From assembly GCA_015065335.1 (NCBI GenBank), contig SVQM01000002.1:1-54270 (forward strand): DNA of 54,270 nucleotides, read 5' to 3'. Of this stretch, positions 18,175 to 47,032 are shown one piece after another. Below the pieces are notes generated by a model that was given only the letters and a program-made list of their open reading frames with translations, was not told the DNA's origin and ran no database searches. How positions within the stretch are numbered: position 1 is the stretch's first letter; each line of letters opens with the position of its first letter. The stretch is from Oscillospiraceae bacterium. GTDB taxonomy: Bacteria > Bacillota > Clostridia > Oscillospirales > CAG-272. The position numbers were made by a program, and so were the translations under genes.

Positions 18175-18203
18175 TTGACATAAATGTCGCATAATGGTAT
18201 AAT
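18175..18203 (+). promoter_or_regulatory. Near-consensus sigma-A promoter heading the 32-kb locus
   Basis: TTGACA (18175-18180), 17-nt spacer, TATAAT (18198-18203) preceded by TGg (extended -10). It would give a ~250-nt leader. Confidence 0.55.
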
Positions 18204-18376
18204 ATGATGAATAATGAAATAATGTGGATAAGTGTATCTGCGCCCATATTACGGCTATAACGGTAAAAATGACCGTAATGTGCATTTTATCCCATAAAAT
18301 GTGTCGTTCGTCATAAATTTCGACAAAAGCGGAGCTTATGTGGTATGATATAGGCACCGATGAAACAAGTTTAATT

Positions 18377-18440
18377 TCTCTTTTCCGCCAAGAAGCATCA
18401 GCTTGTCGGGAGAGAGATTAAAAAATAATTTATTTTTTAC
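18377..18440 (+). promoter_or_regulatory. Terminator-like hairpin in the 5' leader (possible attenuator)
   Basis: 11-bp stem (tctcttttccg / cgggagagaga, two G-U pairs) with a 19-nt loop, followed by an A/T tract ending in tttttt. It lies ~20 nt upstream of the AAGGAG RBS of the 18457 gene. Confidence 0.35.
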
Positions 18441-18456
18441 TTCAAGGAGAAAAGCT

Positions 18457-20136
18457 ATGAAAAAGACAACCAAAAGACTTGCTCTTGCTATGGTAGTTCT
18501 TACTCTGCTCCAGGTAATGTTTGCGATCCCTTCATTCGCAAAGGCAGCTGACGGCGCAGCAGATGGCGTAGTAGAGGCAAGAGAAGCAGTAGTTCAGATC
18601 TATCTGACCTACACCGACGAAAAAGATGTTGAGTGGTACCTCAAGGCTGAGACCGGCTTCTTCATCAACTCCAATTACATCCTCACCTGTGATCATGGTG
18701 TAAACCTCACCGGTGCAGAGGTTGCTGACCTTGCAGAGCTTTACGGAGATCTGTACGAGGATGAGAGTGCAGCAGAGTACTTCCTCAAGAACTACAAGAA
18801 CAGACTCGGTTACAAGATCATGCTTGACAGAGACGTTCATGTATATGCTACTCCCACAGAGGCAAAGAGTGCGGCGTATGATTTCGCAGTACTTAAGGTA
18901 AACACCTCTCTTAACGGTATCGTTCCCCTTGCACTCGGTAATGATGATATGGTTGATGTTGACTCCGATATCACCTGTCTCGGATTCCCCTCTGTTACAA
19001 CTAACTGGACAGTAGGTAACGAGTTTAAGGCAAGCGATGTAACTCTTACAGATGGTAAGATCGGTAAGTACGAGACCATCGACGGTACTGACTACTTCAT
19101 GCATTCCGCTCTTATCGGTGAGGGAAGCTCCGGTGGTCCTACTCTTCTTGACGATGCTACTGTTGTAGGTATGGTAGGTGCTGTTGCTGTTGCTGACGGC
19201 CGTTATGCTTACTCCCTCCTCGTTGACGAGATGAAGGGCGTTCTTGATAAGTTCGGCATCGAGTACATCAAGAGAGACGGTGGAGTAGTTACTCCCGGTG
19301 ATGACGTTTGTGATCACGAGTGGGGTTCTGCTGTAATGAACAACTGCGTTCCCACTTACACCTGTTCCAAGTGTAATGAGACCAAGACTGATGCGGCTCA
19401 GCACACTTATGGTGAGTGGACCGTTATCAAGGAAGCTACTGCAGAGGCTGCAGGTGAGAAGGCTCAGATGTGTACCGTTTGCGGCGACAAGAAGACTGAG
19501 ATCATTCCCGCTACCGGTGTAACCACTACTGCTAACGCAGATAAGAAGGATGATGATAAGGGCGGTCTCGATATGATGACCATTATCCTCATCGCTGCAG
19601 GCGCAGTTGTACTTATCGTAATCGTAATTATCATCGTAGTTCTCGCAGGCGGCAAGAAGAAGGCTGCTCCCGCACCTGCTCCCGCTCAGAGACCTATGGC
19701 TCCTCCCGCACCTATGGCTCCTCAGCCTATGGCAGCTCCTATGGCTCCCCGTCCCATGGCTCCTCCTATGAATGAGGGTGCAGGTGAGACTACCGTTCTC
19801 AACGACGGTGCAGGTGAGACTACCGTTCTCGGCGGCGGTGCTGCTTGCGGTTCCCTTATCAGAACCAAGACCGGTGAGCGTATCTCAATCGTTGCTCCCG
19901 AGTTCGTGATCGGTAAGGAGAAGAGACGTGTTAACTACTGCATCTCCGATAATAACTCTATCAGCCGTGCACACGCTAAGATCATCGTAAGAGGTGGTTC
20001 TTGCTACGTTGTTGATATGAACTCTACTAACTTCACTTTCGTTAACGGAACTAAGCTTGCAAGCGGTCAGGAGCAGCTCCTGAACGACGGCGACAAGATC
20101 AAGCTCTCCGACGAGGAATTCGAGTTCAAGGCGTAA
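18457..20136 (+). CDS. Trypsin-like serine protease - TM - Pro-rich/ETTVL linker - FHA domain protein
   Basis: Start moved to ATG 18457 (RBS AAGGAG; MKKTTKRLALAMVVL signal peptide). S1 triad context: TCDHGV, DFAVLKV, GEGSSGGP. Cys-rich module, TM helix IILIAAGAVVLIVIVIIIVVLAG, PMAP repeats, two GAGETTVL repeats. C-terminal FHA signature: SRAH...NSTNFTFVNG. Confidence 0.8.
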   Translation: MKKTTKRLALAMVVLTLLQVMFAIPSFAKAADGAADGVVEAREAVVQIYLTYTDEKDVEWYLKAETGFFINSNYILTCDHGVNLTGAEVADLAELYGDLYEDESAAEYFLKNYKNRLGYKIMLDRDVHVYATPTEAKSAAYDFAVLKVNTSLNGIVPLALGNDDMVDVDSDITCLGFPSVTTNWTVGNEFKASDVTLTDGKIGKYETIDGTDYFMHSALIGEGSSGGPTLLDDATVVGMVGAVAVADGRYAYSLLVDEMKGVLDKFGIEYIKRDGGVVTPGDDVCDHEWGSAVMNNCVPTYTCSKCNETKTDAAQHTYGEWTVIKEATAEAAGEKAQMCTVCGDKKTEIIPATGVTTTANADKKDDDKGGLDMMTIILIAAGAVVLIVIVIIIVVLAGGKKKAAPAPAPAQRPMAPPAPMAPQPMAAPMAPRPMAPPMNEGAGETTVLNDGAGETTVLGGGAACGSLIRTKTGERISIVAPEFVIGKEKRRVNYCISDNNSISRAHAKIIVRGGSCYVVDMNSTNFTFVNGTKLASGQEQLLNDGDKIKLSDEEFEFKA

Positions 20137-20182
20137 GCTTTACGCAAAAGGATTTAGCAGTTTATAATTGTTAGGTGAAACT

Positions 20183-20950
20183 ATGAACTTCTTAAAAGCA
20201 GCACACACGGATATTGGAATAAAGAAAAAAACAAATCAGGATTCTGTGTTGATACAAGAAGCTTCAACAGACTACGGCCAGGTAATGCTGGCTGTAGTCT
20301 GTGACGGAATGGGCGGCCTTGCCAAAGGTGAGGTCGCCAGTTCCACTGTTATCAACGCAGTGTCAGAATGGTACAAAACTGAGTTTGCGGACATTCTTTA
20401 TGAGGGTATGGATCCGAATTCTCTGCGCATCAGCCTTGAGAATTTCATCTACCGCATGAACGAGAAGATCCAGAACTACAGTAAGGCAAACCGCTGTTCA
20501 ATGGGTACGACATTTGTTGCGTTGTTTGTTGTAGGTGATAAGTACTACGTTATGAATGTCGGTGATTCCAGAGTCTATCGTATCCGAGATTCCTTTGAGC
20601 AGATAACAAAGGATCAGACATATGTTCAGCGTGAGATGGATATGGGACGTATGACTCCCGAACAGGCAAAGACAGATCCTCAGAGAAACGTTCTTCTCCA
20701 GTGTATCGGTGCCAGCAATCATATTGCTCCCGATTTCTATACCGGAGATGTTATGCCCAACGAGTGCTTCCTTCTGTGCTCTGACGGATTTAGACACCTC
20801 ATTACTCCCGAGGAATTCTATGAGTACCTGAATCCTTACGTAGCGACCGATGAGGCAAAAATGAAGCAGGCGCTTGAGTATTTTGTGGATCTCAATAAGT
20901 ATCGTCACGAGGACGATAATATTTCAGCGGCTTTGATCAGGACATATTAA
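20183..20950 (+). CDS. stp: PP2C-family Ser/Thr protein phosphatase
   Basis: ATG at 20183 with an AGGTGA RBS. Motifs TNQDS, VCDGMGG, GDSRVY and CSDG, with a terminal DDNISA. Confidence 0.9.
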   Translation: MNFLKAAHTDIGIKKKTNQDSVLIQEASTDYGQVMLAVVCDGMGGLAKGEVASSTVINAVSEWYKTEFADILYEGMDPNSLRISLENFIYRMNEKIQNYSKANRCSMGTTFVALFVVGDKYYVMNVGDSRVYRIRDSFEQITKDQTYVQREMDMGRMTPEQAKTDPQRNVLLQCIGASNHIAPDFYTGDVMPNECFLLCSDGFRHLITPEEFYEYLNPYVATDEAKMKQALEYFVDLNKYRHEDDNISAALIRTY

Positions 20951-21072
20951 ACTGTCATTGCCGAGCTTTCAAACGTGATTGTCACGAGAGTGAAAAAAGA
21001 GCTTTTGAGGGCTCGGCAGTGACTGTTTCCGTAATTTTACGGTCATTAAATTGTGAGCAGGAGAAATTGCAG

Positions 21073-22824
21073 ATGCTTGAAATAGGATCAGTAATCGATG
21101 GAAAATATAAAATACTGAATAAGATCGGCCAGGGTGGTATGAGCGTCGTTTATCTGGCGATGAACGAGAGAGCCAATAAACAGTGGGCGATCAAAGAGGT
21201 CAGAAAAGACGGAGTTACTAACTTTGAGGTCGTAAAACAGGGACTTGTTGCAGAGGTCGATATGCTGAAAAAGCTGAATCACCCGCATCTTCCCAGTATT
21301 ATCGACGTAATCGACGGTGACGATTCCTTCCTTATTGTAATGGACTATATCGAAGGTGTATCCCTTAATAAGAAATTGAGGGAGCTCGGTGCGATCCCGC
21401 AGGAGAATGTTATCGAATGGGGTAAGCAGCTCTGTGATGTACTTGGATATCTCCATTCAAGAACTGCTCCAATCATCTATCGTGATATGAAGCCGGCAAA
21501 CGTAATGCTGAGACCTGACGGAGATGTAATGCTCATCGACTTCGGAACTGCACGTGAGTTTAAGTCGAACAGTGTTGCAGATACTACCTGTCTCGGTACT
21601 CAGGGATATGCAGCCCCCGAGCAGTTCGGAGGTCAGGGACAGACTGACGCCAGAACAGATATCTACTGTCTCGGTGCAACTCTTTATCATCTTGTTACCG
21701 GTCATAATCCTTGTGAGTATCCTTATGAGATGTATCCCATAAGACAGTGGAATCCTGCTCTTTCATCCGGACTTGAGCAGATCATTCAGAAATGTACTCA
21801 GAAAAATCCCAACGACAGATATCAGTCCTGTGCCGAGCTTATGTACGCTCTCGATCACTATCAGGATTTCGATATTGAGAGTCGCAAGAAGATGAATGTC
21901 AAGTGGCGTTCCTTCGTCGCAGCGAGTCTTGCATCAATTGTGATGTTTGGTGGTGCCGTGGGATTTAAGATCAAGGCAAACAGCGATTCTGAGAGAGCAT
22001 TTAACAATAATATCACTCATACCGAAACAATAGAGGATTTCAGAAACCTGGTGGTTGCGGCATCGGCTTTCCCCGAAAGAGTCGAACCTTATAAAAAGGC
22101 GGTCGAGATCATTCTGAGAGATTCTCAGTTTACTACAACCGAGAGAAATGCACTTCTCACCTCTCTTCTCGATCCTTCCGATACAGAGAACATTGATACT
22201 CTAAAGGAAGAAAACAATGAGTATTACAAGTTCTGCTATGATCTCGGTATTGCGTATTTCTTCCAGTATGAGAATTATACTACCGGTATAGCGAACTGTC
22301 AGAAATGGCTCGATGAGGCGGCAAAAAGTCCTGAGTATGAAAGTACCATCAATGATACTGACTACGGAATGAGTGCCGAGGATATAAAGAACGCAAAGAT
22401 GCTCAGCAAGCTTTCCGGTGCTGTAGCGCATCAGATGTCTAAAAACAACAATGTGTCTATAGACAGTAGTACAAATATTGTAAACGTAGGTGAAGAGGGT
22501 CCCACCGGAGATACTGAATACAATGAAAAACAGTATTGGGATGATCTTACCTCAATTCTGAAGCTCGAATTCTTCAATGAGTCAAATTCCATGACAAAGA
22601 GACGAGTATATCAGTGGATCCACGCAGCACTCCAGCACAATCACGTGAAAATGGCAGGCTACGGTGTAACATATAGTCAGATGAGAGAAGTAATTGATAA
22701 GGCTAAGAGTGATCTGAACAGTATTCTTATCGGTATTGCAGATACATCATCAGCTTCTTATCAGGAAGTAAAGAGCCTTCTCGATAACTATGAGACCATA
22801 GCTGATATGTGGGCAGATCAGTAA
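21073..22824 (+). CDS. Hanks-type Ser/Thr protein kinase with TM helix and extracellular non-PASTA domain
   Basis: ATG at 21073 with an AGGAGA RBS. G-loop GQGGMSVVY, AIKEV lysine, catalytic loop YRDMKPAN, DFGTA, AAPE. TM helix FVAASLASIVMFGGAVGF, then a ~290-aa unassigned ectodomain. Confidence 0.9.
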   Translation: MLEIGSVIDGKYKILNKIGQGGMSVVYLAMNERANKQWAIKEVRKDGVTNFEVVKQGLVAEVDMLKKLNHPHLPSIIDVIDGDDSFLIVMDYIEGVSLNKKLRELGAIPQENVIEWGKQLCDVLGYLHSRTAPIIYRDMKPANVMLRPDGDVMLIDFGTAREFKSNSVADTTCLGTQGYAAPEQFGGQGQTDARTDIYCLGATLYHLVTGHNPCEYPYEMYPIRQWNPALSSGLEQIIQKCTQKNPNDRYQSCAELMYALDHYQDFDIESRKKMNVKWRSFVAASLASIVMFGGAVGFKIKANSDSERAFNNNITHTETIEDFRNLVVAASAFPERVEPYKKAVEIILRDSQFTTTERNALLTSLLDPSDTENIDTLKEENNEYYKFCYDLGIAYFFQYENYTTGIANCQKWLDEAAKSPEYESTINDTDYGMSAEDIKNAKMLSKLSGAVAHQMSKNNNVSIDSSTNIVNVGEEGPTGDTEYNEKQYWDDLTSILKLEFFNESNSMTKRRVYQWIHAALQHNHVKMAGYGVTYSQMREVIDKAKSDLNSILIGIADTSSASYQEVKSLLDNYETIADMWADQ

Positions 22825-22852
22825 GATCGTTGTGTAAAGGAGTGTGATAGTG

Positions 22853-23383
22853 ATGAATAGTTCAATGTTGATTTTCAAAAATGCCGCTGCGGCGGAGGCG
22901 GGCGGATTTGCAAGTACCGCATTCGTAATTTGCCTTGTTTTGGGATGCGTGTGCCTCGCACTTGCTGTGCTTTTCTTCTTCATTTTCGATATTCCGAGAG
23001 TGTACCTTGTCAGAACAGGTAAGGGTGCTCGTAAGACTATCAAAAAAATGGAGGAGATCAATGCTCAGACAGGCAGACTCCGCAGAGTAAACGAAGAATA
23101 TATGCTGTCAGAGGATGCTCCTTTGACAGGAGATATAGGACATACACCAAGCCACGATATCAGCAGCACGCCTCAGATGCAAGGCGGAGCAGAAGGAAAT
23201 GCTACTACAGTGCTGGGACAGCAGATCGAAACTACCGTGCTCAGTAATAATGAAACTACCGTGCTTAACGGCGGTGTTCAGAATAACGCTGTAAGCAGTG
23301 CGTATTCCTATCAGAGAAAAACATCCGGAAAATTTGATGTAGTAACAAATATCGTTATGACACATTCTGATGAGATTATTTGA
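22853..23383 (+). CDS. Small membrane protein with a cytoplasmic tail bearing three (A/E)TTVL repeats
   Basis: About 176 aa; the start could be GTG 22844/22850 or ATG 22853. One TM helix (FVICLVLGCVCLALAVLFFFIF), then NATTVL, IETTVL and NETTVL within 27 residues. Confidence 0.6.
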   Translation: MNSSMLIFKNAAAAEAGGFASTAFVICLVLGCVCLALAVLFFFIFDIPRVYLVRTGKGARKTIKKMEEINAQTGRLRRVNEEYMLSEDAPLTGDIGHTPSHDISSTPQMQGGAEGNATTVLGQQIETTVLSNNETTVLNGGVQNNAVSSAYSYQRKTSGKFDVVTNIVMTHSDEII

Positions 23384-23467: not shown

Positions 23468-23950
23468 GTGAAAATGATAAAAAAGTTTTCCTTATGTTAT
23501 AATATAACGGTCATTGGATATATATTATCGGCAATTGCCATATTGTTTGTTCCGATCTCGGATATTACGGATAACGGAAAAATAGGCGCCTTCAGCATCA
23601 TTGTGGCGATTGTGTTTTGGCTCGGACTTGTATGGGGGACCTTGAGTCTCATTATACTTACAAAGTTGAGACATAAGCTAAGAGCAAGAATGCCGAGCTT
23701 GATCGTAAAGATACCGAAAAAATTTCCCGGTATCATGAATTTCAGTATGAATATCAGACACCTGATATTATATGCTGTTATACTGATCGGAATCGTTATC
23801 ATCATACTTGATTTGATCTTGGGTTTTGCAAATCAGTATTTGATGTTTCCGGTTATCGCAGGTACATATTCTGCATTTATAATGCATTGTATGATAGATG
23901 GAAAGAATTATCAAATCTATAAAATTTTGAAGAAAGGTGAGAAAAAATGA
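23468..23950 (+). CDS. Polytopic membrane protein (hypothetical)
   Basis: 160 aa with about four hydrophobic helices. Its stop overlaps the start of the giant gene (ATGA), suggesting translational coupling. Confidence 0.55.
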   Translation: MKMIKKFSLCYNITVIGYILSAIAILFVPISDITDNGKIGAFSIIVAIVFWLGLVWGTLSLIILTKLRHKLRARMPSLIVKIPKKFPGIMNFSMNIRHLILYAVILIGIVIIILDLILGFANQYLMFPVIAGTYSAFIMHCMIDGKNYQIYKILKKGEKK

Positions 23951-26900
23951 TTGCAAAAAGCAAGAACACTAACTTCAATCGACTGTTGAGTGGATTTTTA
24001 TCACTTCTGATGGTAATGTCCGTTCTTCCTCTCGGTATCTTCTCCGTTGTTGCCGATACAGCAGCAGAGTATACCTTTGCGATAGTCGACGCAAGCGATG
24101 CGGCTGTTGCCGGCGCAACCGTAACTCTTTATGATGATAACAGAGAGGTTGCAAAAGGCGAAACCGATGGAACCGGCAAGGCGGTAATAAAGGCCGATGC
24201 CGGCGATAATGTGACCTATAAGGTGGAGAAGGACGGATACTCATCTGCTATGGGAGTTACTACTGCGGGTGCAGTTGTTACCGTAAAGCTGATCAGACGT
24301 CCTACTACAACAGTTGTAGGTTATGTTAAGGATTCTACCGGTGCTGCCATTACCGGAGCACAGGTCAAAATTGCCGATAAGGGTATTGCCATAACTGACA
24401 CTGTGGGTAAGTTCCTTATCGGAGGTGTATATACCGACGCATCATATGTAATAAACGTTACTTGCGACGGATATAAGGACGTGGCTGTTACAGCTAATCT
24501 CAAGTCCGAGAATATGATCACCATGTTCACAAAGGATGACGGAGATTTTGCGTTTGCGGCAGATAAGGTTACCGTAAAGTACGGTGACAGTGTATCTAAC
24601 ACCCTTATCAACAGCGCACCTTCAGCAAATGTTACCTATGAGTCTTCTGACGAGAGTATTGCTACAGTTGATAACAACGGTAATGTTACGATCAAAAATG
24701 TTACCGGTGCTGACGGTGTAGTTATTACCGCACGTCGTGCAGAATCACTGAACTACCTCTATGCTGAGGATTCCTACACCCTTGTAGTTGTTAAGGGTGA
24801 TCAGGCAACTCTGCAGTGGACAAAATCTGTTCCCGAGGATTATGCTCTCAACTTCAAGAGCGGCGCATATACCAATACTGTTATTGGCGGATCCGGTGAT
24901 GGTGATGTTACATACAAGTCATCTGATACGAATGTCGCTACAGTAAATAATGACGGTGTTGTTACACTTAATATGCCGGGTACCGTTACCATTATGGCTA
25001 CTAAGTCCGGCGGTGAGCTTTATAATGATAAGTCTGCTACATATAGCCTTGTTATTGATAAGGTTGAGCAGGCGCCTCTTGAGTTTGCCATTGCAAGCCC
25101 CGACTCTATCGAATATGGTCAGCAGTTTGCAAATGCTGCTTCCGGCGGTACAGTTTTAAGCGACATCATCTATTCTACAGATGATGCGACTGTTGCTGAG
25201 ATCGACACCGAGAGCAATGTTGTCGGAGCAATAAAGACCAACAGTATCGGTGCTGTAGTTGTAACTGCAACTATGCCCGGAAATGAGTATTATAAGGATG
25301 TTTCTGCATCATATACTCTGTATATCGTTGCTACAAAGCAGAAGGGCTTCCAGTTCCAGAAGGGAACCGAGGGCCTTGAGGTTGCTTGCGGAGAGACATT
25401 TACCAATGCCGCTTTCGGTAATGGTGAGACAAATGTACCCGTAGTATACAAGAGCGAAGATGATACTATCGCAACCGTTGATGAGAACGGTGTTGTTACT
25501 GCGCACAAAACAGGTATCGTTACTATCTCTGCTACTGCTCCCGCAGGCGGAAATTACTCCGAGACTACTATCAGCTATGAGCTCAATATCTATAAGGGCT
25601 ATCAGGAGCTGACTTTTGAGAATGGTAATATTGATATTCCCGCTATCTTCTACGGCGAGACATATCAGAACAAGGCGATCGCCAAGACCGGAGTTACCTA
25701 TAAGACTTCAAATAAGAATATCGCAACTATTGATGAGAACGGTGTTGTTACACCTCTCAAGTCAGGCGTCATTATAATCACTGCTACTGCTGAAGATACT
25801 GCTGATTACTATGGTGCTACCGCTACATACAGACTCACTATCAATAAGGCTGAGCCTAAGATCGAGTTTGAGAACGGTGCGGATGTAACCGTACAGTTCA
25901 ACGATAACGATAATGTATATCAGAACGAGGCTTTCTGTCAGTCAATGATAGATGACGGAACCGTGACCGATATCGCTTATTCTGTTTCCAATACAGATAT
26001 CGTGGCAGATCTTGATCCTGCTACAGGTAAGTTTACAATTACCGGTACAGGTACAGCTACCATTTCTGTAACCTTTGCAGAAAATGAAAGATATGCAGCG
26101 AAGACAGCTTCTTACACAATTACTGTTATTCCCGACGATCAGAAGATCGTATTCCCCGAGGATAAGTATACTCTTCTTTCCGGTACCAATTTTGCGACTG
26201 TACCTGTTGCAACTGAGGACGGAGATCTCTTCGGTACCGGTGCTATCACCTATGCCGTAAAGAGCGATGATAGCGGTGTTATCAAGTCATTTGATGTAAA
26301 CACCGGTGCTATAGAGTTTACTAATAAGGTTGGAACTGTAGTTATCGTTGCAACTAAGGCAGAGGACAGAAATTACAATGCCGCAACTGCCGAATATACT
26401 CTTACAGTAGAGTACTGGAAGCCCGAGAGAGAATTCTTTGCTCCTGTAGGTGAGAAGAACTATGAGGCAAATGAGTGGTATATCGGTAACGTAACCATTC
26501 AGGCAGAGGATGGATATTCTCTCAGTTTCGACAACCACGTTGATAATGCAGAGTGGCTTCCCGCTCTTGACGATGTAGTGGTCGATGACAGTAAGGAGAC
26601 CACAGTTTCCTTCTACCTCAGAGATAATAATACAGGTGCTATCACGGCACAGTATACAAAGCTCTTTAAGAAGGACTGCGTTGCCCCTTCTGCTGAGATC
26701 AATGCAAAAGAGAAGAATACATGGGAGAAGTTCCTCTCCATCTTTACCGGACTTTTCTGGGATGCAGATGAGGATGTGTTCACCGTAACTTCCTCCGATG
26801 CTACCTCCGGTGTTGCAAAGATCGAGTACTATATCGACTACGATAAGACTACTACCGCAACCTATGATGAGCTGGCTGCACTTGCAGATTCCGAATGGAT

Positions 26901-29900
26901 CGCTTATACCGATGAGGGTATTGCGGCTGATGAGAGTACCGTATTTGCAGTATACGCAAGAGTTACCGATCATGCAGGTAACTGTGTATATGTTTCAACT
27001 AACGGTATTATCCATGATCCTGCAGCTCCCGAAGTAGAGCTTACGGTTACAGGCGATACTGCAAACGGCGTGTATTATAAGGATGTAACAATTGACTTTG
27101 ATGTTACCGACGCAGAGCCTTCTTCCGGTATTACTAAGGTAACATATAATGTTGTTGTTACAGATCTTGACGGCGTTTCTACTGTTATTGTAGATAATGA
27201 AGAGTATTTTGCTGATAACAGTGAGGATCCCGAATACGCTGATCTTGTAAGAAACGTATCAAAATCCGGTACCGATATCCTTTATTATAAGGCACTTGAT
27301 TATAATAACTATACAATGAATGTTACCGTAACTGCAACTGACAGAGCCGGTAACGTAACAGTAGAAAGCACAGAGTTCTTCATTCGTGCAGACAGACCCG
27401 AGCTCGAAGAGGTCATCATCGAAGAGGGCTACGGTAAGCGTACAATTCAGTTTGCGATCAAGGATTTCCATGATCTTGAGCTGTTTGCTGAGACTGTAGA
27501 GTTTACTGTTGTTGCAACCGATATCGAAGGCAATGTGCTTGAGAATAATGACGGTAGCCTTTATACAATCGAGCCCTGGATATATGAGGGTGAAGGAAGA
27601 CATACTACAACCGCATATTTCACAGGCGATGCAATCTATAATCTGCACCTTGAATATTCCTACGATTACGATGAGGAAAAGGGCCAGGAGCCTTTTGATA
27701 CAGAGTTTACAGTAGATACCACATCTCCTACCGGTAATCTGTCAATCGATAAGACAGATAAGCTTTGGACAGACATTTTTGAAACACTTACATTCGGGCT
27801 GTGGACTAATGACAGCTTTGAGGTAGTCGGAAGTGCTTACGATAGCATTACCGGCGTAAACAGCGTTGAGTTCTATGAGATCGACGGTACACTGGTAGAT
27901 AGCAAGCTTGGTACTACCAAGGAAGAGATCGTAGCGGCACTTGACCTTGTTGAGTGGACAGCTATTGACAGTGTAGAGGACTTTACAGAGTTCGCTGTTA
28001 AGACTATCGTTCCCGACAGCCGTACTACTGTATTTGTTAAGATCACTGACGTTGCAGGAAACTACAGATACATCAGCACCGATGGAATCATCGTAGAGGA
28101 TGATGAGGCTGTGATCGAATTTACTTCCGATGATCCCGAGGCTGACGGATACTATACCTCTGATTTCAATGTAAATATTTCCGTTACCGATCCTGAGATC
28201 TATTCCGGTATCGCAAAGATCGAGTATTGGGTAGTAAAGGACAATGATACGGAAAATCCGACTCAGGAAGGTGTTCTCTATACATTCGGTGATGTAAATC
28301 CCGCATATGATAAGCTCACAAATACCTTCACCGATAATGTTGTTATTGAAACTGATAAGAACAACAGTGATAATGTCTGCCTCTATGTAGAAGTAACAGA
28401 TAATGCAGGCAATAAGACTGTTAGAAACAGCGAACAGTTCAAGATCGATAACACTGCACCTGTTGTAAATATTGAGTTCACAGGTGAAAACAAGAATAAC
28501 GGTGCACTTGACGGTAACTTTACATCCAGAGAAGTGAAGATCACCGTAACCGAGAGAACAAGCGGCTTTGATGCAGATGCAGTTCTTGCAGTACTCGGCA
28601 TTACCGCAGTTGATGCAAAGGGTAATGCAGTAGAAAATGCATACACTATTGGTGAGTGGACCACTGTTCCCGGTGAGAATATCAATGATGATACACATAC
28701 CGTAGTGATCACTTTTGCGAAGGATGCAAGATACACCTTCGAGATCGCAAGCTTTACCGATAAGGCGGGTAATAAAGCAGAGTTCGTGATCGGCGAGGCT
28801 GTAAGTGAGACTTACGGACCCGACGAATTTGTAGTAGATACAACTGCTCCTATCGCTACCGTCACCGTAAATGGTAACGATATCGTAGGAAATCTTACCT
28901 TTGATAAGGAGACCGTGAGCGTAACAGTAACACCCGATGATGCGACCTCCGGTGTTCAGTACGTTCAGTGGCTCAAGGTCAACTCCACCATTCCTATGGA
29001 GCAGGCTGAGCTTGAGGCGGCAGAGTGGTCTAATGAAGCAATCACCGAGATCGCTCCAAACGAGATCGCAACAATCTACGCAAAGATCGTTGACAATGCA
29101 GGAAATTACTGCTACGTTGGAACAAACGGACTCGTAATTGAGAATAATGCGGCAGAGCTTACCGTTACTCCTGCAGAGCCTAATGCAAACGGTTATTACA
29201 GCAACGATGTAGCTGTGAATGTTACAGTTACAGATCCCGATATCTATTCCGGTATCGCAAAGATCGAGTACTGGGTGATCTGCGATGGCATTGAGACTCA
29301 GAAAGATACTCTTGATTTGGATATCGTTGATGATCCCGTATACGATGACCTCAAGAATGTATTTGAGGGAAGTATCGATGTTATTGCTGAAAAGAATAAC
29401 AGCGATAACGTAGTTCTCTATGTGCGTGCAACCGATAACGCAGGCAACATTATCGAGAAGAGCGTAGAGCTCAAGATCGATGTAACAGCACCTGTAGTTG
29501 ATGTTAAGTATATCAACGAGACTAAGAATGACGGTGCAGTAGACGGTAACTTTACATCCAGAGGAGCAAAGATCACCGTAACTGAGAGAACAAGCGGCTT
29601 TGATGCAGATGCAGTTCTCGCAGCACTCGGAATCACAGCATTTGATGCAAAGGGTAATGCAGTAGAGAATGCATACACTATCGGTGAGTGGACTACCACA
29701 AAGGGAGCAACTCCCGATGAGGATACACATACCGTAGTGATCACCTTTGTTAAGGATGCAAGATACACCTTCGAGATCGCAAGCTTTAACGATCTTGCAG
29801 GAAACGCATCTGTAGCATATGAGGCAGACAGCTTTGTAGTTGATACAACTGTTCCTACAGGATATATTACTGTTGGTGATAAGAGCGACTGGGCACTTAT

Positions 29901-32900
29901 CCTTGAAAAGCTGACCTTTGGTCTGTTCGGAAATTCTAAGGTATATGTAAGTGCTACTACCGACGATGCAACCTCCGGTGTTCAGTTCATTCAGTGGCTT
30001 AAGACTGATGCTAAAACTGTTATGACTAAGGCTGAGCTCGATGCTGCTAAATGGTCTGATATTGATCAGAAACAGCCCTGTGCTATTCCTGATGAGTATA
30101 AAACTATCGATCCCGATGAGATCGCAACTATCTACATCAAGGTTGTAGATAATGCAGGTAACTACGAGTATTTCAATACTCAGGGAATCATCATTGAGGA
30201 TAATGCAGCAGAGATCACTATTACTCCTGCAGAGCCTAACAAAAACGGCTACTACAACAGCGATGTTTCAGTAAATATCGCAGTAACCGATCCCGATATC
30301 TATTCCGGTATCAAGGAAGTAGAGTATTGGGTAGTATGCGACGGCAAGGAGACTAAGAGAGAGAATCTCTATGCATTTGACATTGAGAATCCTGTACACA
30401 GAGATATCGCAAATACATTCGATCGTGATATCACAGTAATCGCTAATGATAACAACAGTGACAACGTAAAGGTATTCGTAAGAGTAACCGATAACGCAGG
30501 TAACGAGTTTATCAAGGAGAGCGATGTTCTCAAGATCGATGTAACAGCTCCTGTTGTAAATGTTGAGTATATCAATGAGAACAAGAATGGTGCAGCGATT
30601 GACGGCAACTTTACATCAAGAGATATAAAGATCACCGTAACCGAGAGATCAAGCGGCTTTGATGCAGACGCAGTTCTTGATGCACTCGGCATTGACGCAT
30701 TTGATGCAAAGGGTAATGCAGTAGAGAATGCATACACTATCGGCAGATGGGTTCCCGCATCAGATACAACTCCCGATGAGGATACACACACTGTAACCAT
30801 TACTTGCGATAAGAATGCAAAGTTTACCTTCGAGCTTGCAAGCTTTACCGATCTTGCGGGTAATGAAGCACAGTTCATGATTGGTGAGACTGCTTATGAG
30901 ACTTACGGTCCCGACAGCTTCGCCGTAGATACCACTGCTCCTACAGGATCAATTACGATCACTGTTAAGGATAAGGATGGTAACGATATTACAGAGGAGT
31001 GGAAGAAAGAGATTACTTCCGCAACTGCTGCAGATCCTACTATCTTTAACAGATACTACAATGCAACTATTACTGTAAGCAACACCTCCGATGATGTGAC
31101 ATCCGGTGTACAGTATGTTCAGTGGCTTAAGACTGATGCTAAAACTGTTATGACTAAGGCTGAGCTCGATGCGGCAGAGTGGTCTGATGATGCTATCACT
31201 TCTATCGCTCCCGATGAGATCGCAACGATCTACATCAAGATCGTTGACAATGCAGGAAACTACTGCTACATCGGTACAAACGGACTTATCATTGAGGATA
31301 ATGCAGCAGAGATCACTATTACTCCTGCAGAGCCTAACGAGAACGGCTACTACAACAGCGATGTTGCAGTAAATATCGCAGTAACCGATCCCGATGACAC
31401 CTATTCCGGTATCAAGGAAGTAGAGTACTGGGTAGTATGCGACGACAAGGAGACAAAGAGAGAGAAGCTCTATGCATTTGACATTGAGAATCCTGTACAC
31501 GGAGATCTCGCAAATACATTCAATCAGAATATTACAGTAATCGCTAATGATAACAACAGCGATAATGTAAAGGTATTTGTAAAAGTAACCGATAACGCAG
31601 GTAACGAGTTTATCAAGGAGAGCGATGTTCTCAAGATCGATGTAACAGCTCCTGTAATTGAAGTTGAGTTCGAGGTTGAAGAACAGCTTGATAATGCAGT
31701 AAAGAACTATTTCTACAAGCGTATTGCAACCATTACTATTACCGAAAGATCCTCTGCATTCGATAAGGGAGCTGCAAACACTGCGATCATGAGTGGTATT
31801 AAGGGCTTTGATGTAAACGGATATGGTGTTGATCTTAAGTTCGGTGAAAACGGAAACATGCATCTTGTAGGTTGGACAGATGTTAAGGGTGCAACTCCCG
31901 ATGAGGATACTCATACTGCTACAGTAGAATTCCTTGCTGATGCAAACTATACATTCGGATTCACCTATACCGATCTTGCAGGAAACACATCTGAGGCTTA
32001 TAATGCAGAAGCATTTACAGTGGATACCACAGCTCCTACCGGTTCTGTTACAGTTGGTGATCTGGGAGTGTGGGAAGCACTTCTTGAGAAGCTTACCTTC
32101 GGTCTGTACAGCAACGGAACTGTTACCGTAACAGGTACTTCAGCCGATGTTACAAGCCCTGTTCAGTATGTTGATTACTTCAAGACCGATTCTGAAGCAG
32201 CTCTTACTGTCGATGAGCTTGCAAATGTAAGCTGGACAGCATTCGGAAACGGCTTCGATGTTGCTGCCAACGAGCAGTTCACGGTATATCTGAGAATAAT
32301 CGATGCAGCAGGTAATGTAGCATATATCAGCTCCAACGGAATTATCGTTGACGATACTGCTCCCGTTGTTGAAAGCATTAAGCCTGAGGTTACGATCAAA
32401 CCCGAAAAGCCTATCAATGGATTCTATAAGTCTGACTTTACTGTCGCAGTAAAAGTCTCCGAGTCTAATGTCAAGGATGTATATTCCGGACTTAAAACTA
32501 TTACTTATGTAATTCATGATAAGGTAAGCGATGAGAAGGAAACCGGTATTCTGTATCAGTTTGATACCGTCGCTCCCGGTAAGGATCAGCTTAAGACTGT
32601 ATGGGAAGATGAAAAGGCTATTACAGTTAATGCAAAGAAGTTCAACAGTAATGATGTAGAGATCTCGGTAACTGCAGAGGATAATGCAGGTAACTTTAAT
32701 ACTAAGGTAGAGAAGGTCAAGATCGATACTACCATTCCTACGATCAGTGTGGATTACGGTAATGATACAGGAATCGGCGAATACTACAAGACCAACCGTA
32801 CTGCTACTATCGTTATTACTGAGCGTAACTTTGATCCTTCCGACGTTATTGTAACCATTACAAATACTGATAATGTAGTTCCTACTATCAGTGCATTTAC

Positions 32901-34548
32901 TACCATTAACGGAAACGGAAATGGTGATAATACCAAGCATACTGCTACTATCAAGTATACTGCTGACGGTGATTATACCTTCGATATCAAGTATACGGAT
33001 GAAGCAGGAAATGCTGCAAAGGGTGTCACAAGTAATGATGCTGAGAATCCCTTTAAGTTTACCATCGATAAGACCGTACCTGTCATTGATTGGGCTTTCG
33101 ATAACAACAAATCAACTAACACAAGCTATTTCAATGACGACAGAATCCTTACTGTTACTGTAACAGAGCACAACTTCGATCCTGCTAAGTTCATTGCATC
33201 TACTAATGGCAGATTGATCGATGGCAAGTGGGATGCAGACGGAGATAGACATATCGGTCGCTTTGAGTTTATCGTTGATGATAAAAATATGGGTAAATTC
33301 AATTTCAGTTGTGTTGTGACAGACATGGCAGGTAACAGTTACACAAGAAACGATGTACCGAATTTCGTTATCGATAAGACTCAGCCTGATCTGACTCTTA
33401 CAGATAATGTAAATCCCGATGTCACCATCGACACTCCCACTGCGTACAATGATAAGATCTCATTTACTATTACATACACAGATATTTATCTTGTTGACAG
33501 TGAGAGCGGATATGAGATCAAAGTAACTGACTCCACCGGTAAGGATGTTACTGACGACTTCAGGAAAGATGAAGATAGGTCAAGTGCTATCGAACACAGC
33601 AGTATTGCCGCTGAAGAGAAGGTTGACACGGTAACTATCACTTACACCGATGATTCAACTACCAGAAAGCTTCCCGACGGAATCTACACTATAAAGGCTA
33701 CTGTATATGACATGGCAGGAAATACAGATACAGTGACCAAGACTTTCTCCGTAAACAGAGATTCCTCCAACTATCTCGTTGATTCTTACCTTGATGGACT
33801 TATTAAGAATGCATTTAATAAGGTAATCAATGATAAGATCGTTATCCGTGAGATCAACTGTACAGAGCTTAAAAACATCTCTATAAAGGTTACTCGCGAT
33901 AATCAGACTATCACTCTTGAGAAGGATAAGGATTACGTGATCGAGGTGGTAAAAACTGATGGTGACTGGTATGAGTACAGCTATATCATCAATCCCGATA
34001 AGTTCGCAGAGGACGGAAATTACAAGATCCTTGTAGAGTCTGAGGATGGTGCAGGCAACAAGATTAGTAATATTTCCGCAACCGGCGATTACAGAAAGAC
34101 CATTGAGTTCTTCGTTGATGATACAGCTCCTACGATCATCGTATCCGGCCTTGACGATTCACCTTATGATGCTGAACAGATCACTGCATTTATCACATAT
34201 GAGGATAACATTGCAGTAGATCGTGTAGAGGTAACTGTAACAGGTGGAAGAGATGAGTCTGTAACTTATGTGATCGGTGAGGGCGATCTCAGTGATCTGA
34301 ATAAGCTCTCCGATCAGATCGAGCACATCATTAAGGCTGCCGATGACAGACAGACACTTACATTTGTAGTATACGATGAGGCAGGAAATGCGAGCGAGAG
34401 CATCACAAAGACTGTCACCGTATCTACCAACCTTTGGGTACTGTTTATCAACAACACTCCCGTACTTATCGCATCTATCGTTGCTCTGGTACTTATTCTT
34501 GGTGCTGCAGTAACAATTCCCGTAATGAGAAAGAGACGCGCAAAGTAA
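23947..34548 (+). CDS. Giant (3533-aa) Ig-like/beta-sandwich repeat surface protein with C-terminal TM anchor
   Basis: Uninterrupted 10.6-kb ORF. N-terminal signal peptide, CarboxypepD_reg-like units, a run of Big_2-like units (SSD..IATVD..G.VT...G), and many modules ending in a TD-x-AGN motif and starting with VDTTAP. C-terminal helix LIASIVALVLILGAAVTIPV followed by MRKRRAK. No LPXTG. Confidence 0.85.
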   Translation: MIAKSKNTNFNRLLSGFLSLLMVMSVLPLGIFSVVADTAAEYTFAIVDASDAAVAGATVTLYDDNREVAKGETDGTGKAVIKADAGDNVTYKVEKDGYSSAMGVTTAGAVVTVKLIRRPTTTVVGYVKDSTGAAITGAQVKIADKGIAITDTVGKFLIGGVYTDASYVINVTCDGYKDVAVTANLKSENMITMFTKDDGDFAFAADKVTVKYGDSVSNTLINSAPSANVTYESSDESIATVDNNGNVTIKNVTGADGVVITARRAESLNYLYAEDSYTLVVVKGDQATLQWTKSVPEDYALNFKSGAYTNTVIGGSGDGDVTYKSSDTNVATVNNDGVVTLNMPGTVTIMATKSGGELYNDKSATYSLVIDKVEQAPLEFAIASPDSIEYGQQFANAASGGTVLSDIIYSTDDATVAEIDTESNVVGAIKTNSIGAVVVTATMPGNEYYKDVSASYTLYIVATKQKGFQFQKGTEGLEVACGETFTNAAFGNGETNVPVVYKSEDDTIATVDENGVVTAHKTGIVTISATAPAGGNYSETTISYELNIYKGYQELTFENGNIDIPAIFYGETYQNKAIAKTGVTYKTSNKNIATIDENGVVTPLKSGVIIITATAEDTADYYGATATYRLTINKAEPKIEFENGADVTVQFNDNDNVYQNEAFCQSMIDDGTVTDIAYSVSNTDIVADLDPATGKFTITGTGTATISVTFAENERYAAKTASYTITVIPDDQKIVFPEDKYTLLSGTNFATVPVATEDGDLFGTGAITYAVKSDDSGVIKSFDVNTGAIEFTNKVGTVVIVATKAEDRNYNAATAEYTLTVEYWKPEREFFAPVGEKNYEANEWYIGNVTIQAEDGYSLSFDNHVDNAEWLPALDDVVVDDSKETTVSFYLRDNNTGAITAQYTKLFKKDCVAPSAEINAKEKNTWEKFLSIFTGLFWDADEDVFTVTSSDATSGVAKIEYYIDYDKTTTATYDELAALADSEWIAYTDEGIAADESTVFAVYARVTDHAGNCVYVSTNGIIHDPAAPEVELTVTGDTANGVYYKDVTIDFDVTDAEPSSGITKVTYNVVVTDLDGVSTVIVDNEEYFADNSEDPEYADLVRNVSKSGTDILYYKALDYNNYTMNVTVTATDRAGNVTVESTEFFIRADRPELEEVIIEEGYGKRTIQFAIKDFHDLELFAETVEFTVVATDIEGNVLENNDGSLYTIEPWIYEGEGRHTTTAYFTGDAIYNLHLEYSYDYDEEKGQEPFDTEFTVDTTSPTGNLSIDKTDKLWTDIFETLTFGLWTNDSFEVVGSAYDSITGVNSVEFYEIDGTLVDSKLGTTKEEIVAALDLVEWTAIDSVEDFTEFAVKTIVPDSRTTVFVKITDVAGNYRYISTDGIIVEDDEAVIEFTSDDPEADGYYTSDFNVNISVTDPEIYSGIAKIEYWVVKDNDTENPTQEGVLYTFGDVNPAYDKLTNTFTDNVVIETDKNNSDNVCLYVEVTDNAGNKTVRNSEQFKIDNTAPVVNIEFTGENKNNGALDGNFTSREVKITVTERTSGFDADAVLAVLGITAVDAKGNAVENAYTIGEWTTVPGENINDDTHTVVITFAKDARYTFEIASFTDKAGNKAEFVIGEAVSETYGPDEFVVDTTAPIATVTVNGNDIVGNLTFDKETVSVTVTPDDATSGVQYVQWLKVNSTIPMEQAELEAAEWSNEAITEIAPNEIATIYAKIVDNAGNYCYVGTNGLVIENNAAELTVTPAEPNANGYYSNDVAVNVTVTDPDIYSGIAKIEYWVICDGIETQKDTLDLDIVDDPVYDDLKNVFEGSIDVIAEKNNSDNVVLYVRATDNAGNIIEKSVELKIDVTAPVVDVKYINETKNDGAVDGNFTSRGAKITVTERTSGFDADAVLAALGITAFDAKGNAVENAYTIGEWTTTKGATPDEDTHTVVITFVKDARYTFEIASFNDLAGNASVAYEADSFVVDTTVPTGYITVGDKSDWALILEKLTFGLFGNSKVYVSATTDDATSGVQFIQWLKTDAKTVMTKAELDAAKWSDIDQKQPCAIPDEYKTIDPDEIATIYIKVVDNAGNYEYFNTQGIIIEDNAAEITITPAEPNKNGYYNSDVSVNIAVTDPDIYSGIKEVEYWVVCDGKETKRENLYAFDIENPVHRDIANTFDRDITVIANDNNSDNVKVFVRVTDNAGNEFIKESDVLKIDVTAPVVNVEYINENKNGAAIDGNFTSRDIKITVTERSSGFDADAVLDALGIDAFDAKGNAVENAYTIGRWVPASDTTPDEDTHTVTITCDKNAKFTFELASFTDLAGNEAQFMIGETAYETYGPDSFAVDTTAPTGSITITVKDKDGNDITEEWKKEITSATAADPTIFNRYYNATITVSNTSDDVTSGVQYVQWLKTDAKTVMTKAELDAAEWSDDAITSIAPDEIATIYIKIVDNAGNYCYIGTNGLIIEDNAAEITITPAEPNENGYYNSDVAVNIAVTDPDDTYSGIKEVEYWVVCDDKETKREKLYAFDIENPVHGDLANTFNQNITVIANDNNSDNVKVFVKVTDNAGNEFIKESDVLKIDVTAPVIEVEFEVEEQLDNAVKNYFYKRIATITITERSSAFDKGAANTAIMSGIKGFDVNGYGVDLKFGENGNMHLVGWTDVKGATPDEDTHTATVEFLADANYTFGFTYTDLAGNTSEAYNAEAFTVDTTAPTGSVTVGDLGVWEALLEKLTFGLYSNGTVTVTGTSADVTSPVQYVDYFKTDSEAALTVDELANVSWTAFGNGFDVAANEQFTVYLRIIDAAGNVAYISSNGIIVDDTAPVVESIKPEVTIKPEKPINGFYKSDFTVAVKVSESNVKDVYSGLKTITYVIHDKVSDEKETGILYQFDTVAPGKDQLKTVWEDEKAITVNAKKFNSNDVEISVTAEDNAGNFNTKVEKVKIDTTIPTISVDYGNDTGIGEYYKTNRTATIVITERNFDPSDVIVTITNTDNVVPTISAFTTINGNGNGDNTKHTATIKYTADGDYTFDIKYTDEAGNAAKGVTSNDAENPFKFTIDKTVPVIDWAFDNNKSTNTSYFNDDRILTVTVTEHNFDPAKFIASTNGRLIDGKWDADGDRHIGRFEFIVDDKNMGKFNFSCVVTDMAGNSYTRNDVPNFVIDKTQPDLTLTDNVNPDVTIDTPTAYNDKISFTITYTDIYLVDSESGYEIKVTDSTGKDVTDDFRKDEDRSSAIEHSSIAAEEKVDTVTITYTDDSTTRKLPDGIYTIKATVYDMAGNTDTVTKTFSVNRDSSNYLVDSYLDGLIKNAFNKVINDKIVIREINCTELKNISIKVTRDNQTITLEKDKDYVIEVVKTDGDWYEYSYIINPDKFAEDGNYKILVESEDGAGNKISNISATGDYRKTIEFFVDDTAPTIIVSGLDDSPYDAEQITAFITYEDNIAVDRVEVTVTGGRDESVTYVIGEGDLSDLNKLSDQIEHIIKAADDRQTLTFVVYDEAGNASESITKTVTVSTNLWVLFINNTPVLIASIVALVLILGAAVTIPVMRKRRAK
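27709..32750 (+). repeat. Five tandem ~1.0-1.13-kb coding modules inside the giant gene
   Basis: Module boundaries (V/F)VDTT(A/S/V)P fall near 27709, 28833, 29836, 30925 and 32020. Modules 3 and 4 share perfectly identical 54-nt (29991-30044 = 31119-31172) and 72-nt (30483-30554 = 31584-31655) stretches. Confidence 0.8.
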
Positions 34549-34557
34549 TTAAAACAT

Positions 34558-34643
34558 AAGAAGCAGCCTCTGCGCTGGCAAACCACAAGGAGGATGTAAT
34601 CCTGTGGTTTGCCGCCGGAGGCTCTTCTTGCATTTATTGTTTG
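34558..34643 (+). terminator. Two-tier stem-loop terminator after the giant gene
   Basis: Outer stem aagaagcagcctc / gaggctcttctt. Inner stem ggcaaaccacaagg / cctgtggtttgcc. Followed by gcatttattgttt. Confidence 0.55.
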
Positions 34644-34651
34644 AGGTAACG

Positions 34652-46654: not shown

Positions 46655-46687
46655 TAATAAGACAGAAGAGAAAAGGAGAAAAAGAAA

Positions 46688-47002: not shown

Positions 47003-47032
47003 TTTGAATAGATAGCTTACCCTTGAATTTCA

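Follow-up and report, generated by a model that had tools for sequence, protein, structure and literature searches.

What would a protein do that combines a trypsin-like protease outside the cell with an FHA domain inside it, when its gene stands at the head of a type VII secretion system (T7SS) locus? The question is raised by a gene in a 54,270-nucleotide stretch of DNA (positions 1 to 54,270 of contig SVQM01000002.1, assembly GCA_015065335.1, Oscillospiraceae bacterium), hereafter called the window. A first-pass annotation, made from the letters alone, had described the gene product as an unusual fusion that couples an outside proteolytic event or substrate to inside phospho-dependent interactions, or the reverse. 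As judged from domain content and gene position, the protein is a variant that fills the slot of TseJ, a predicted component of the T7SSe subtype, and the cytoplasmic domain of TseJ appears to have been swapped for a transmembrane (TM) helix and an extracellular protease. The functionally central and constant part of the protein is its cytoplasmic tail, which comprises a linker, two GAGETTVL motifs and the FHA domain. The reading we favour, with moderate confidence, is that the protein may serve as a phosphothreonine (pThr) adaptor, controlled by a kinase and a phosphatase, that tethers a mycosin-like protease to the secretion machine.

Organization of the fusion protein

The coding sequence and the features of its product, with the evidence for each, are as follows (AlphaFold2 confidence is given as predicted local distance difference test, pLDDT).

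18457..20136, + strand: coding sequence of the protease-TM-FHA protein (T7SSe "J-slot" protein)
18457..18543, + strand: signal peptide, residues 1-29 (hydropathy and charge calculation)
18574..19296, + strand: S1C/HtrA-like serine protease domain, residues ~40-280 (Pfam, AlphaFold2, Foldseek)
19309..19491, + strand: Cys/His-rich, beta-rich stalk module, residues 285-345 (alignment, PDB match, AlphaFold2)
19573..19644, + strand: single TM helix, residues 373-396 (hydropathy 3.66; AlphaFold2 helix 373-396)
19663..19764, + strand: Pro/Ala/Met-rich disordered linker, residues 403-436 (pLDDT <50)
19777..19830, + strand: two identical GAGETTVL motifs, residues 441-448 and 451-458 (26-sequence alignment)
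19843..20133, + strand: FHA domain, residues 463-559 (Pfam, alignment to 6hc1, AlphaFold2)

The elements named in the first-pass annotation, i.e., the signal peptide, the S1 protease, the Cys-rich module, the TM helix followed by KKK, the Pro-rich linker, the ETTVL repeats and the FHA domain, were all recovered.

Such a protein could in principle arise if a protease gene and an FHA gene were joined artificially, through faulty sequencing or assembly or a wrongly called open reading frame (ORF), and frame breaks do occur in draft metagenome-assembled genomes (MAGs), as evidenced by three related loci (L042, L068 and L077) in which the protease lies in a different frame from the FHA part. The probability of an artefact is nevertheless negligible, since the explanation is refuted by recurrence across independent contigs and clusters. 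In the window, 18403..20136 (+) is a single unbroken ORF, and 20 independent contigs encode an identical 559-residue protein. The probable start codon is the ATG at 18457, which yields the 559-residue product and is preceded by an AAGGAGA ribosome-binding site (18444-18450, 7 nt upstream); the same ATG was picked by independent gene callers on four metagenome contigs, with an identical product. The sequence was found only in DNA metagenomes, from faeces and sheep gut, and a look for RNA runs from this organism returned none. A cluster search covering 5.8 billion clustered proteins returned 132 clusters, and all 120 of those listed combine Trypsin_2 and FHA in proteins of 470-606 residues. With at least 120 clusters carrying the whole architecture, the combination is not due to chance.

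The cytoplasmic tail

Within the family, the FHA cassette of the tail is better conserved than the protease or the stalk: mean pairwise identity is 55% in the FHA cassette, 37% in the protease and 26% in the stalk. The linker varies in length and sequence. In an alignment of 26 family sequences, residues G441, T445, L448, G453, E454, T455 and L458 of the two motifs are invariant. The first Thr of the ETT motif is conserved in 70 of 71 full-length species-level sequences in the upstream copy and in all 71 in the downstream copy. These first Thr residues are proposed phospho-acceptors, and the resulting pT-x-x-L would be a putative FHA ligand. FHA domains classically prefer ligands of the form pT-x-x-(I/L/V). 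The ETTVL motifs are laid out like the ETTS motif of GarA: an acidic residue comes first, a Thr-Thr pair next and a hydrophobic residue at +3, all within a disordered segment that precedes the FHA domain. In the AlphaFold2 model, residues 396-461 are disordered (pLDDT <50). In the GarA phospho-switch, the first Thr of ETTS is the main phospho-site (PMC5448819).

Pfam assigns residues 484-550 to the FHA family (E 5e-15), with 56 bits where the cut-off is 20.7; the domain is modelled with a pLDDT of ~90 as beta strands running from residue 465 to 558. It aligns residue by residue to the solved FHA domain 6hc1, with the S-R-x-H and S-T-N elements in place. The residues of the predicted pThr site are G486-K487 (canonically G-R), S503-R504-x-H506 and S523-T524-N525. 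Residues S503, R504, H506 and N525 are invariant in all 71 species sequences, and T527 and N530 are also invariant in the 26-sequence alignment. The domain shows weak sequence matches to GarA and OdhI. NCBIfam likewise returned weak, sub-threshold similarities of the protein to MarP-like protease, FhaB/FipA, OdhI and TagH.

The next genes on the same strand are listed here.

20168..20950, + strand: PP2C/PPM Ser/Thr phosphatase, TseF-like (Pfam PP2C_2; NCBIfam Stp1/IreP-like, E 4e-56)
21019..22824, + strand: Hanks kinase with a TM helix at residues 298-318 and a helical ectodomain, TseD-like (Pfam Pkinase, E 5e-50)
22844..23383, + strand: 179-residue single-TM protein, TseH-like (TM helix with a positive C-flank)
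23468..23950, + strand: 160-residue polytopic membrane protein (recognisable in only some related loci)
23947..34548, + strand: giant immunoglobulin (Ig)-repeat surface protein, TseI (Pfam Big_2 and CarboxypepD_reg; hydrophobic segments at both ends)

We searched 22 locus proteins for a strict form of the ETTVL motif (E/N/D/Q/A-T-T/S-hydrophobic-L/I). It was found only in the protease-FHA protein (two copies), in the TseH-like protein (three copies) and in a LytTR protein (one weak copy). The three (E)TTVL motifs of the TseH-like protein lie in its cytoplasmic tail, at residues 118-141. Its homologues carry one to seven ETTxL-type copies in 51 of 69 loci; for instance, [Ruminococcus] torques has seven EETTLLN repeats. 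By a rough estimate, chance would place ~0.06 copies of the four-residue pattern in a protein of this size. The TseH-like protein is probably a kinase substrate and an FHA ligand.

As a separate observation, the (E)TTVL repeats of the TseH-like protein resemble a row of docking sites to which the FHA domains encoded in the locus could bind.

The TseJ slot

The 124-residue tail cassette alone was searched against 1.84 billion representatives clustered at 50% identity. This yielded 133 clusters at E <1e-30, and a protease domain is present in 119 of the best 150 matches. Two proteins among the best 150, P0241 and P0252, are of the TseJ type, being composed of DUF6382, a zinc ribbon, two GETTVL motifs and an FHA domain. 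Their cassette is 56% identical to that of the window protein over 120 residues. The gene for P0241 (locus L087) occupies the same slot, upstream of genes for a PP2C, a kinase, a 165-residue TM protein, a 167-residue membrane protein and a giant protein. The kinase of this locus is 54% identical to the window kinase, and the 165-residue TM protein carries two GETAVL motifs. Four other loci (L059, L076, L080 and L082) encode only the TM helix, the motifs and the FHA domain, with no protease. Since the cassette is also found on a cytoplasmic DUF6382 protein and on these TM-only forms, the conserved function appears to reside in the cassette, and the ectodomain appears to be swappable.

DUF6382 gave no match in the window protein, and the notion that DUF6382 is a diverged protease domain was rejected (hhalign probability 0.1%). 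The idea that a match to just residues ~400-559 marks a locus as protease-less was also rejected, as most such loci hold a full-length ORF with GxSGGP and three have the protease in a different frame. Four more (L047, L057, L060 and L068), in which the gene may be cut by a contig end, were not counted among the protease-less loci.

In L087 (1-9985), Tad/Flp pilus genes (Flp, TadE and prepilin peptidase A24) stand immediately upstream of the DUF6382-FHA locus, which echoes the T7SS-Tad linkage reported for other subtypes.

The extracellular protease domain

The signal peptide has a KK..KR n-region, a hydrophobic core at residues 8-28 and a cleavage-type site (A-K-A|A), and an N-terminal hydrophobic segment is present in 25 of the 26 aligned homologues. 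Downstream, Pfam assigns residues 66-239 to Trypsin_2 (E 4e-17), with 63.6 bits where the cut-off is 27.6. The His, Asp and Ser contexts quoted in the first-pass annotation proved to be those of the catalytic residues, and the triad is intact: H80 (codon 18694-18696) lies within LTCDHGVN, D142 (18880-18882) within YDFAVLKV and S225 (19129-19131) within GEGSSGGPT. The corresponding family consensus sequences (VLTNxHVV, MDFAxLKL and GNSGGPLL) are HtrA-like. The triad is invariant in the 26-sequence alignment and complete in 68 of the 71 species sequences; its retention argues for selection on the predicted protease activity.

The AlphaFold2 model, obtained from the 26-sequence alignment, has a mean pLDDT of 75, with values of 85-93 in the protease region. 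Two additional helices (residues 86-116) are inserted between the catalytic His and Asp. A Foldseek comparison with the PDB placed HtrA-family structures first (E ~1e-12; target TM-scores 0.66-0.80), the highest scores (0.77-0.80) being those of the protease domains of HtrA1 and DegS-deltaPDZ, with full-length DegP and DegQ chains lower. Further matches include Mycobacterium tuberculosis MarP and the S1C-NTF2 ectodomain of Clostridium thermocellum RsgI9 (7sjy). Identity to the HtrA-type matches is merely 11-21%. A search of the PDB with the sequence of the whole protein matched only FHA domains and the Cys module, so the protease kinship came from the fold comparison. Pfam gave no PDZ match at E values up to 0.1. 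The ectodomain thus belongs to the S1C fold group, but it has no PDZ domain, the defining feature of HtrA proteins.

In Gram-positive bacteria, HtrA proteases are anchored in the membrane and have secreted proteins as their substrates. Given the HtrA-like fold and the GNSGGP-type motif, the protein could be read as a housekeeping HtrA-type quality-control protease of the Sec pathway that happens to stand beside the T7SS genes, or as a protein that sheds its ectodomain by autoproteolysis. We regard this as very unlikely. From one Clostridial family to another, the gene order with T7SS signalling genes hardly varies, and the tail cassette is one shared specifically with a T7SSe component. Moreover, a PDZ domain is missing and the anchoring is reversed: in place of an N-terminal anchor, the protein has a signal peptide together with a C-terminal TM helix.

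Stalk and membrane topology

The stalk module contains six Cys and two His residues between positions 285 and 342 (C285, H287, C297, C303, C306, H316, C339 and C342). A match to it was found in an "IgA protease" chain of known structure (9qa6_A, residues 1075-1134, E 6e-6), and AlphaFold2 models it as beta hairpins with pLDDT values of 64-78. The Cys module is kept only in the closest subclade. In most other members of the family, the stalk position is taken by a FIVAR-like helical module (PF07554) or by a low-complexity stretch. FIVAR is a domain typical of Gram-positive surface proteins, and its presence in the stalk of many homologues fits an outside location. As a side observation, Clostridial surface proteins may reuse the Cys/His module as a small juxtamembrane building block, which would either bind zinc or form disulfide bonds.

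The TM helix is followed by KKK at residues 400-402 (nt 19654-19662), in which K400 and K401 are nearly invariant. The charge of its flanks is -2 on the N side and positive on the C side. By the positive-inside rule, the acidic N-flank and the KKK C-flank place the protease outside and the tail inside, as the first-pass annotation had proposed. The protein is accordingly a predicted type I membrane protein, with the N-terminus out and the C-terminus in.

The T7SS locus

The remaining genes of the locus are listed below.

34604-36541, + strand: second kinase, with TPR
36727-37119, + strand: zinc-ribbon protein with a C-terminal TM helix, TseK-like
37150-38763, + strand: TPR/CarboxypepD_reg protein with a TM helix
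38787-39314, + strand: TM-FHA protein
39464-44452, + strand: 1662-residue EssC-like FtsK/SpoIIIE ATPase with an N-terminal FHA domain
44532-45248, + strand: LytTR DNA-binding protein, directly after EssC
45970-46218, + strand: YukD/ubiquitin-like protein of 82 residues, just before the WXG100 genes (Pfam YukD, 28.3 bits against a cut-off of 27)
46358-48516, + strand: five WXG100 genes
48513-49097, + strand: second TM-FHA protein
49113-50189, + strand: Gly-zipper-rich 358-residue protein
50223-50495, + strand: DUF4176 protein

The genes all lie on the + strand with short or overlapping spacers. The components of T7SSe are TseA1/A2, B, C, D, F, H, I, J and K, and a TPR-kinase belongs to T7SSj (PMC11217815). 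The window holds a full T7SSe-type set, i.e., an FHA-EssC, at least two WXG100 proteins, YukD, a kinase, a PPM phosphatase, a one-TM protein, an Ig-repeat giant and a zinc-ribbon-TM protein; the assignment was made by domain type and topology, not with the sequences of the authors of the scheme. The giant features a signal peptide as well as a TM helix at its C-terminus, as does the TseI type. Because the kinase with TPR is a T7SSj feature (TsjD-like) and not a T7SSe one, the locus mixes T7SSe and T7SSj traits. The two TM-FHA proteins carry the canonical G-R, S-x-x-H and N residues.

Synteny was analysed by tblastn of the window proteins against 82 related loci. The order protease-FHA, PP2C, kinase, 179-residue protein, (160-residue protein), giant is found in nearly all of them, and PP2C is immediately downstream in 80. 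The same gene order around a 33%-identical homologue was seen on 129 contigs. The gene is, as the first-pass annotation had stated, the first of the locus, upstream of the PP2C and kinase genes, and is linked to a WXG100/EssC type VII locus.

Upstream of the gene, two further elements were identified in an AT-rich spacer of 655 nt.

18175..18203, + strand: sigma-70-type promoter, TTGACA-17 nt-TATAAT with an extended -10 TG (12/12 consensus match)
18210..18456, + strand: structured 5' leader, with a hairpin at ~18380-18420 followed by an A/T-rich run just upstream of the ribosome-binding site

The promoter, assigned by consensus match alone, lies ~250 nt upstream of the start codon. The leader RNA fold has a z-score of -3.5 relative to 200 shuffles, and matched no Rfam family. 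An AT-rich spacer with a perfect promoter and a structured leader suggests that the protease-FHA gene is the first of a transcription unit; the leader is possibly an attenuator or another form of leader-based control of the T7SS unit.

Three side observations concern the window at large. The two Hanks kinases have one TM helix each and differ in their ectodomains, which is helical in one (21019-22824) and an extracellular TPR domain in the other (34604-36541). The 358-residue protein, for which Pfam gave no match, is helical in its N-terminal part, whereas its C-terminal part is hydrophobic and rich in glycine zippers; it resembles a membrane-active T7SS toxin with accessory or immunity genes, DUF4176 being next to it. 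Lastly, a 121-bp tandem repeat (15788-16056, within a repeat family starting at ~15650; 2.2 copies, 92% match by Tandem Repeats Finder) sits in the spacer between convergent DUF4838 glycosidase-like genes, and ORF translations suggest a third, more diverged copy upstream.

Distribution and natural pseudo-proteases

A scan restricted to one genome per species found 96 relatives, and 80 loci were kept. The carriers are overwhelmingly Lachnospiraceae and Oscillospiraceae/Ruminococcus from gut and rumen (~70 species-level genomes), and include the cultured strains [Ruminococcus] torques ATCC 27756, Faecalicatena orotica DSM 1287 and F. faecalis. Two MAGs bear non-Firmicutes labels, Bacteroidaceae (L011) and Coriobacteriales (L023), yet their loci look Clostridial; the labels probably reflect mis-binning, not horizontal transfer.

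In the sense of rare, "unusual" did not hold: with at least 120 clusters, this is a large conserved family of gut and rumen Clostridia. The first-pass annotation had also allowed that the architecture might turn out to be common and already characterised, and only the first half of this proved right. Database annotation of the family is generic, and a literature search found no paper describing a protease-TM-FHA architecture and nothing on the subject beyond Garrett et al. 2024 (PMC11217815), the sole paper defining this locus type. The main text of that paper makes no mention of a protease component, and the portion of its supplements that was available holds no entries for Lachnospiraceae, Ruminococcus or Blautia. 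The architecture is thus common yet uncharacterised, and its place in the T7SS scheme is so far undescribed.

Three loci (L039, L048 and L055) encode proteins in which the three catalytic residues are all lost. In these and in two further proteins (P0133 and P0176), His is changed to Asp, Glu, Gln or Lys, the Asp position holds Asp, Gln or Asn, and Ser is changed to Ile or Val. The pseudo-proteases keep the Trypsin_2 fold (P0133, E 4.5e-13), and the TM helix, the FHA domain and the two ETTVL motifs are retained as well.

Such variants raise the possibility that the protein acts mainly as a structural scaffold, similar to YscD/PrgH or MycP, with proteolysis being secondary or vestigial and with an FHA domain that works independently of phosphorylation, as in the EssC-EssB pair of T7SSb. 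A weak Pfam similarity to the YscD cytoplasmic FHA-like domain (31.6 bits, below the cut-off of 33.2) and the replacement of Arg by Lys at a key phosphate contact of the FHA domain point the same way, as do the FHA domains of T7SSb EssC proteins, which are devoid of pThr-binding residues and bind a pseudokinase (PMC11217815). We consider a mainly structural role quite improbable, however, as it accords poorly with a triad that 68 of the 71 species sequences retain and that none of the 26 aligned sequences has lost. The invariant Thr of the ETTVL motifs, together with a kinase that bears its active site and a PP2C in the same operon, speaks for real phospho-regulation.

Direction of coupling

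In the favoured reading of a phospho-controlled adaptor that docks a protease, the Hanks kinase encoded two genes downstream would phosphorylate the first Thr of the ETTVL motifs, both on the window protein and on the TseH-like protein, and the adjacent PP2C would strip the phosphate. The pT-x-x-L sites would be read by the FHA domains of the window protein, of the two TM-FHA proteins and possibly of EssC. Reading may occur in cis, resembling the self-inhibition of GarA and OdhI, or in trans, in the assembly or activation of the secretion complex. The tail would keep the PDZ-less HtrA-like protease close to the machine on its outer side; there the protease may process or quality-control T7SS substrates or the giant TseI, or may stabilise the complex, as MycP does in T7SSa. 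The presence of MycP, not its activity, is needed for the stability of the T7SSa complex (PMC5082899), and the natural pseudo-protease clade fits a structural need of this kind. Control of secretion by threonine phosphorylation is established in type VI secretion systems (T6SS; summarised in PMC11217815). In Actinobacteria, the Esr pathway leads from a surface Ig-repeat sensor through a kinase and phosphatase to a phosphorylated FHA output protein and to control of Esx (PMC13622651).

Information could also flow in the opposite direction. The ectodomain would then detect a cue outside the cell by binding or cleavage (the cue might be envelope proteins that are unfolded or damaged, an altered TseI filament, or an encounter with a competitor or phage), and its oligomerisation would cluster the tails, leading to phosphorylation and to FHA-dependent activation of the T7SS. 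The structural neighbours of the ectodomain include the stress-sensing DegS and the S1C domain of RsgI9 (7sjy), described as a protease-like sensor that binds cellulose (PMC12203970), and Esr itself runs from a surface Ig-repeat sensor to an FHA protein and Esx. The catalytically dead variants, which retain the fold, fit a binding role, and the ectodomain has changed more rapidly than the tail, a pattern often seen in sensors. In contrast, the cassette is found in the same slot without this ectodomain, both in the DUF6382/TseJ protein and in the four TM-only loci; as the cassette works without an ectodomain, sensing by the ectodomain cannot be its core function. The large ectodomains of the kinases could do the sensing themselves, and a single TM helix followed by a disordered linker of ~60 residues would transmit conformational changes poorly, although clustering would still be possible. 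Overall, outside-in sensing seems unlikely, if far from negligible. The forms without the ectodomain favour an inside phospho-signal that positions or controls the outside protease over outside proteolysis that signals inward.

A mixed scheme, which we hold to be improbable, would have coupling run both ways: phosphorylation of the ETTVL motifs, read by the FHA domains, would set the oligomeric state of the protease through the single TM helix, and thereby its activity, and substrate-driven oligomerisation outside would feed back on phosphorylation of the tail. If this were true, T7SS firing in a gut commensal would be gated by a surface protease checkpoint.

Several points weigh against docking of the protease by a phospho-controlled adaptor. 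Every family member is known from sequence alone, the topology is based solely on hydropathy and the positive-inside rule, and no substrate could be inferred for the protease. At the canonical G-R pair of the FHA domain, the Arg is replaced by Lys (K487) in 64 of the 71 species sequences and kept in 7, which leaves pThr binding plausible but not assured; the FHA domain of EssC has G-E rather than G-R and may not read pThr. In the AlphaFold2 model, the ETTVL motifs are not docked on the FHA domain (pLDDT <50 at residues 423-461), and the second motif lies only ~9 residues before the first FHA strand, a spacing that may be too short for binding in cis. Finally, the pseudo-proteases resemble a single clade, and therefore count as approximately one evolutionary event.

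Loci of the T7SSe and T7SSj types were defined bioinformatically in 2024 (PMC11217815), and the T7SS of gut Firmicutes is known almost solely from T7SSb. The family described here occurs in genera that are common in the gut of humans and ruminants, among them [Ruminococcus] torques, Faecalicatena, Blautia, Dorea and Mediterraneibacter, and physically fuses a protease to a T7SS phospho-signalling cassette. The candidate phospho-sites T445 and T455, together with the ETTxL repeats of TseH-like proteins, make the long-suspected phospho-regulation of T7SS through FHA domains testable, and culturable carriers exist.

Comparison with known systems

The protein shares features with several known systems without coinciding with any of them. 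Like the proteins of the HtrA/DegP/DegS/DegQ family and MarP (Rv3671c), it has an S1C fold, the triad motifs TNxHV, DFAxLK and GNSGGP and an extracytoplasmic location. It differs from the HtrA family in the lack of a PDZ domain, in a C-terminal TM helix that follows a signal peptide, in the cytoplasmic FHA tail and in the two-helix insertion. RsgI9 of C. thermocellum is likewise a single-pass signalling protein with an outer S1C domain, but it sits in the membrane the other way round, with its anti-sigma domain N-terminal and cytoplasmic, its S1C domain is described as a sensor that binds cellulose, and it has neither an FHA domain nor a link to T7SS.

In the tail, the closest parallels are GarA and OdhI, in which an E-T-T-x motif in a disordered stretch N-terminal to the FHA domain is the target of a Hanks kinase (PMC5448819). 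GarA, a metabolic regulator, is small and soluble and has a single motif, whereas the window protein has two motifs very near its FHA domain and is set in a membrane and secretion context. At the level of gene sets, genes for a membrane-bound Hanks kinase, for a PP2C and for an FHA protein also accompany secretion genes in the PpkA/PppA/Fha system of T6SS, the TssL-Fha system of Agrobacterium and the Esr/Esx system (PMC11217815, PMC13622651). Esr begins with a giant surface Ig-repeat protein, which is followed by a kinase and by a pThr in a disordered region of the FHA output protein. In contrast, none of the FHA proteins of these three systems is fused to an extracellular protease, and the components are not orthologous.

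MycP of T7SSa also combines a signal peptide, an extracytoplasmic serine protease and a C-terminal TM anchor, and is encoded in a T7SS locus. However, MycP has a subtilisin (S8) fold and no FHA/phospho-motif tail, whereas the fold of the window protease is that of S1C chymotrypsin-like enzymes, so the window protein is not a mycosin. The two belong to different T7SS subtypes and phyla, and their likeness is one of analogy, not homology. A dedicated membrane protease in a Clostridial T7SS would be a functional parallel to mycosin, of independent origin and with another fold.

The nearest relative in organization is TseJ, itself a predicted T7SSe component known only bioinformatically (PMC11217815). 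The two proteins share the cassette of two (G)ETTVL motifs and an FHA domain, the slot and the gene set of the locus. They differ upstream of the cassette, where TseJ features DUF6382 and is not predicted to be membrane-bound, whereas the window protein carries a signal peptide, an HtrA-like protease, a stalk and a TM helix.

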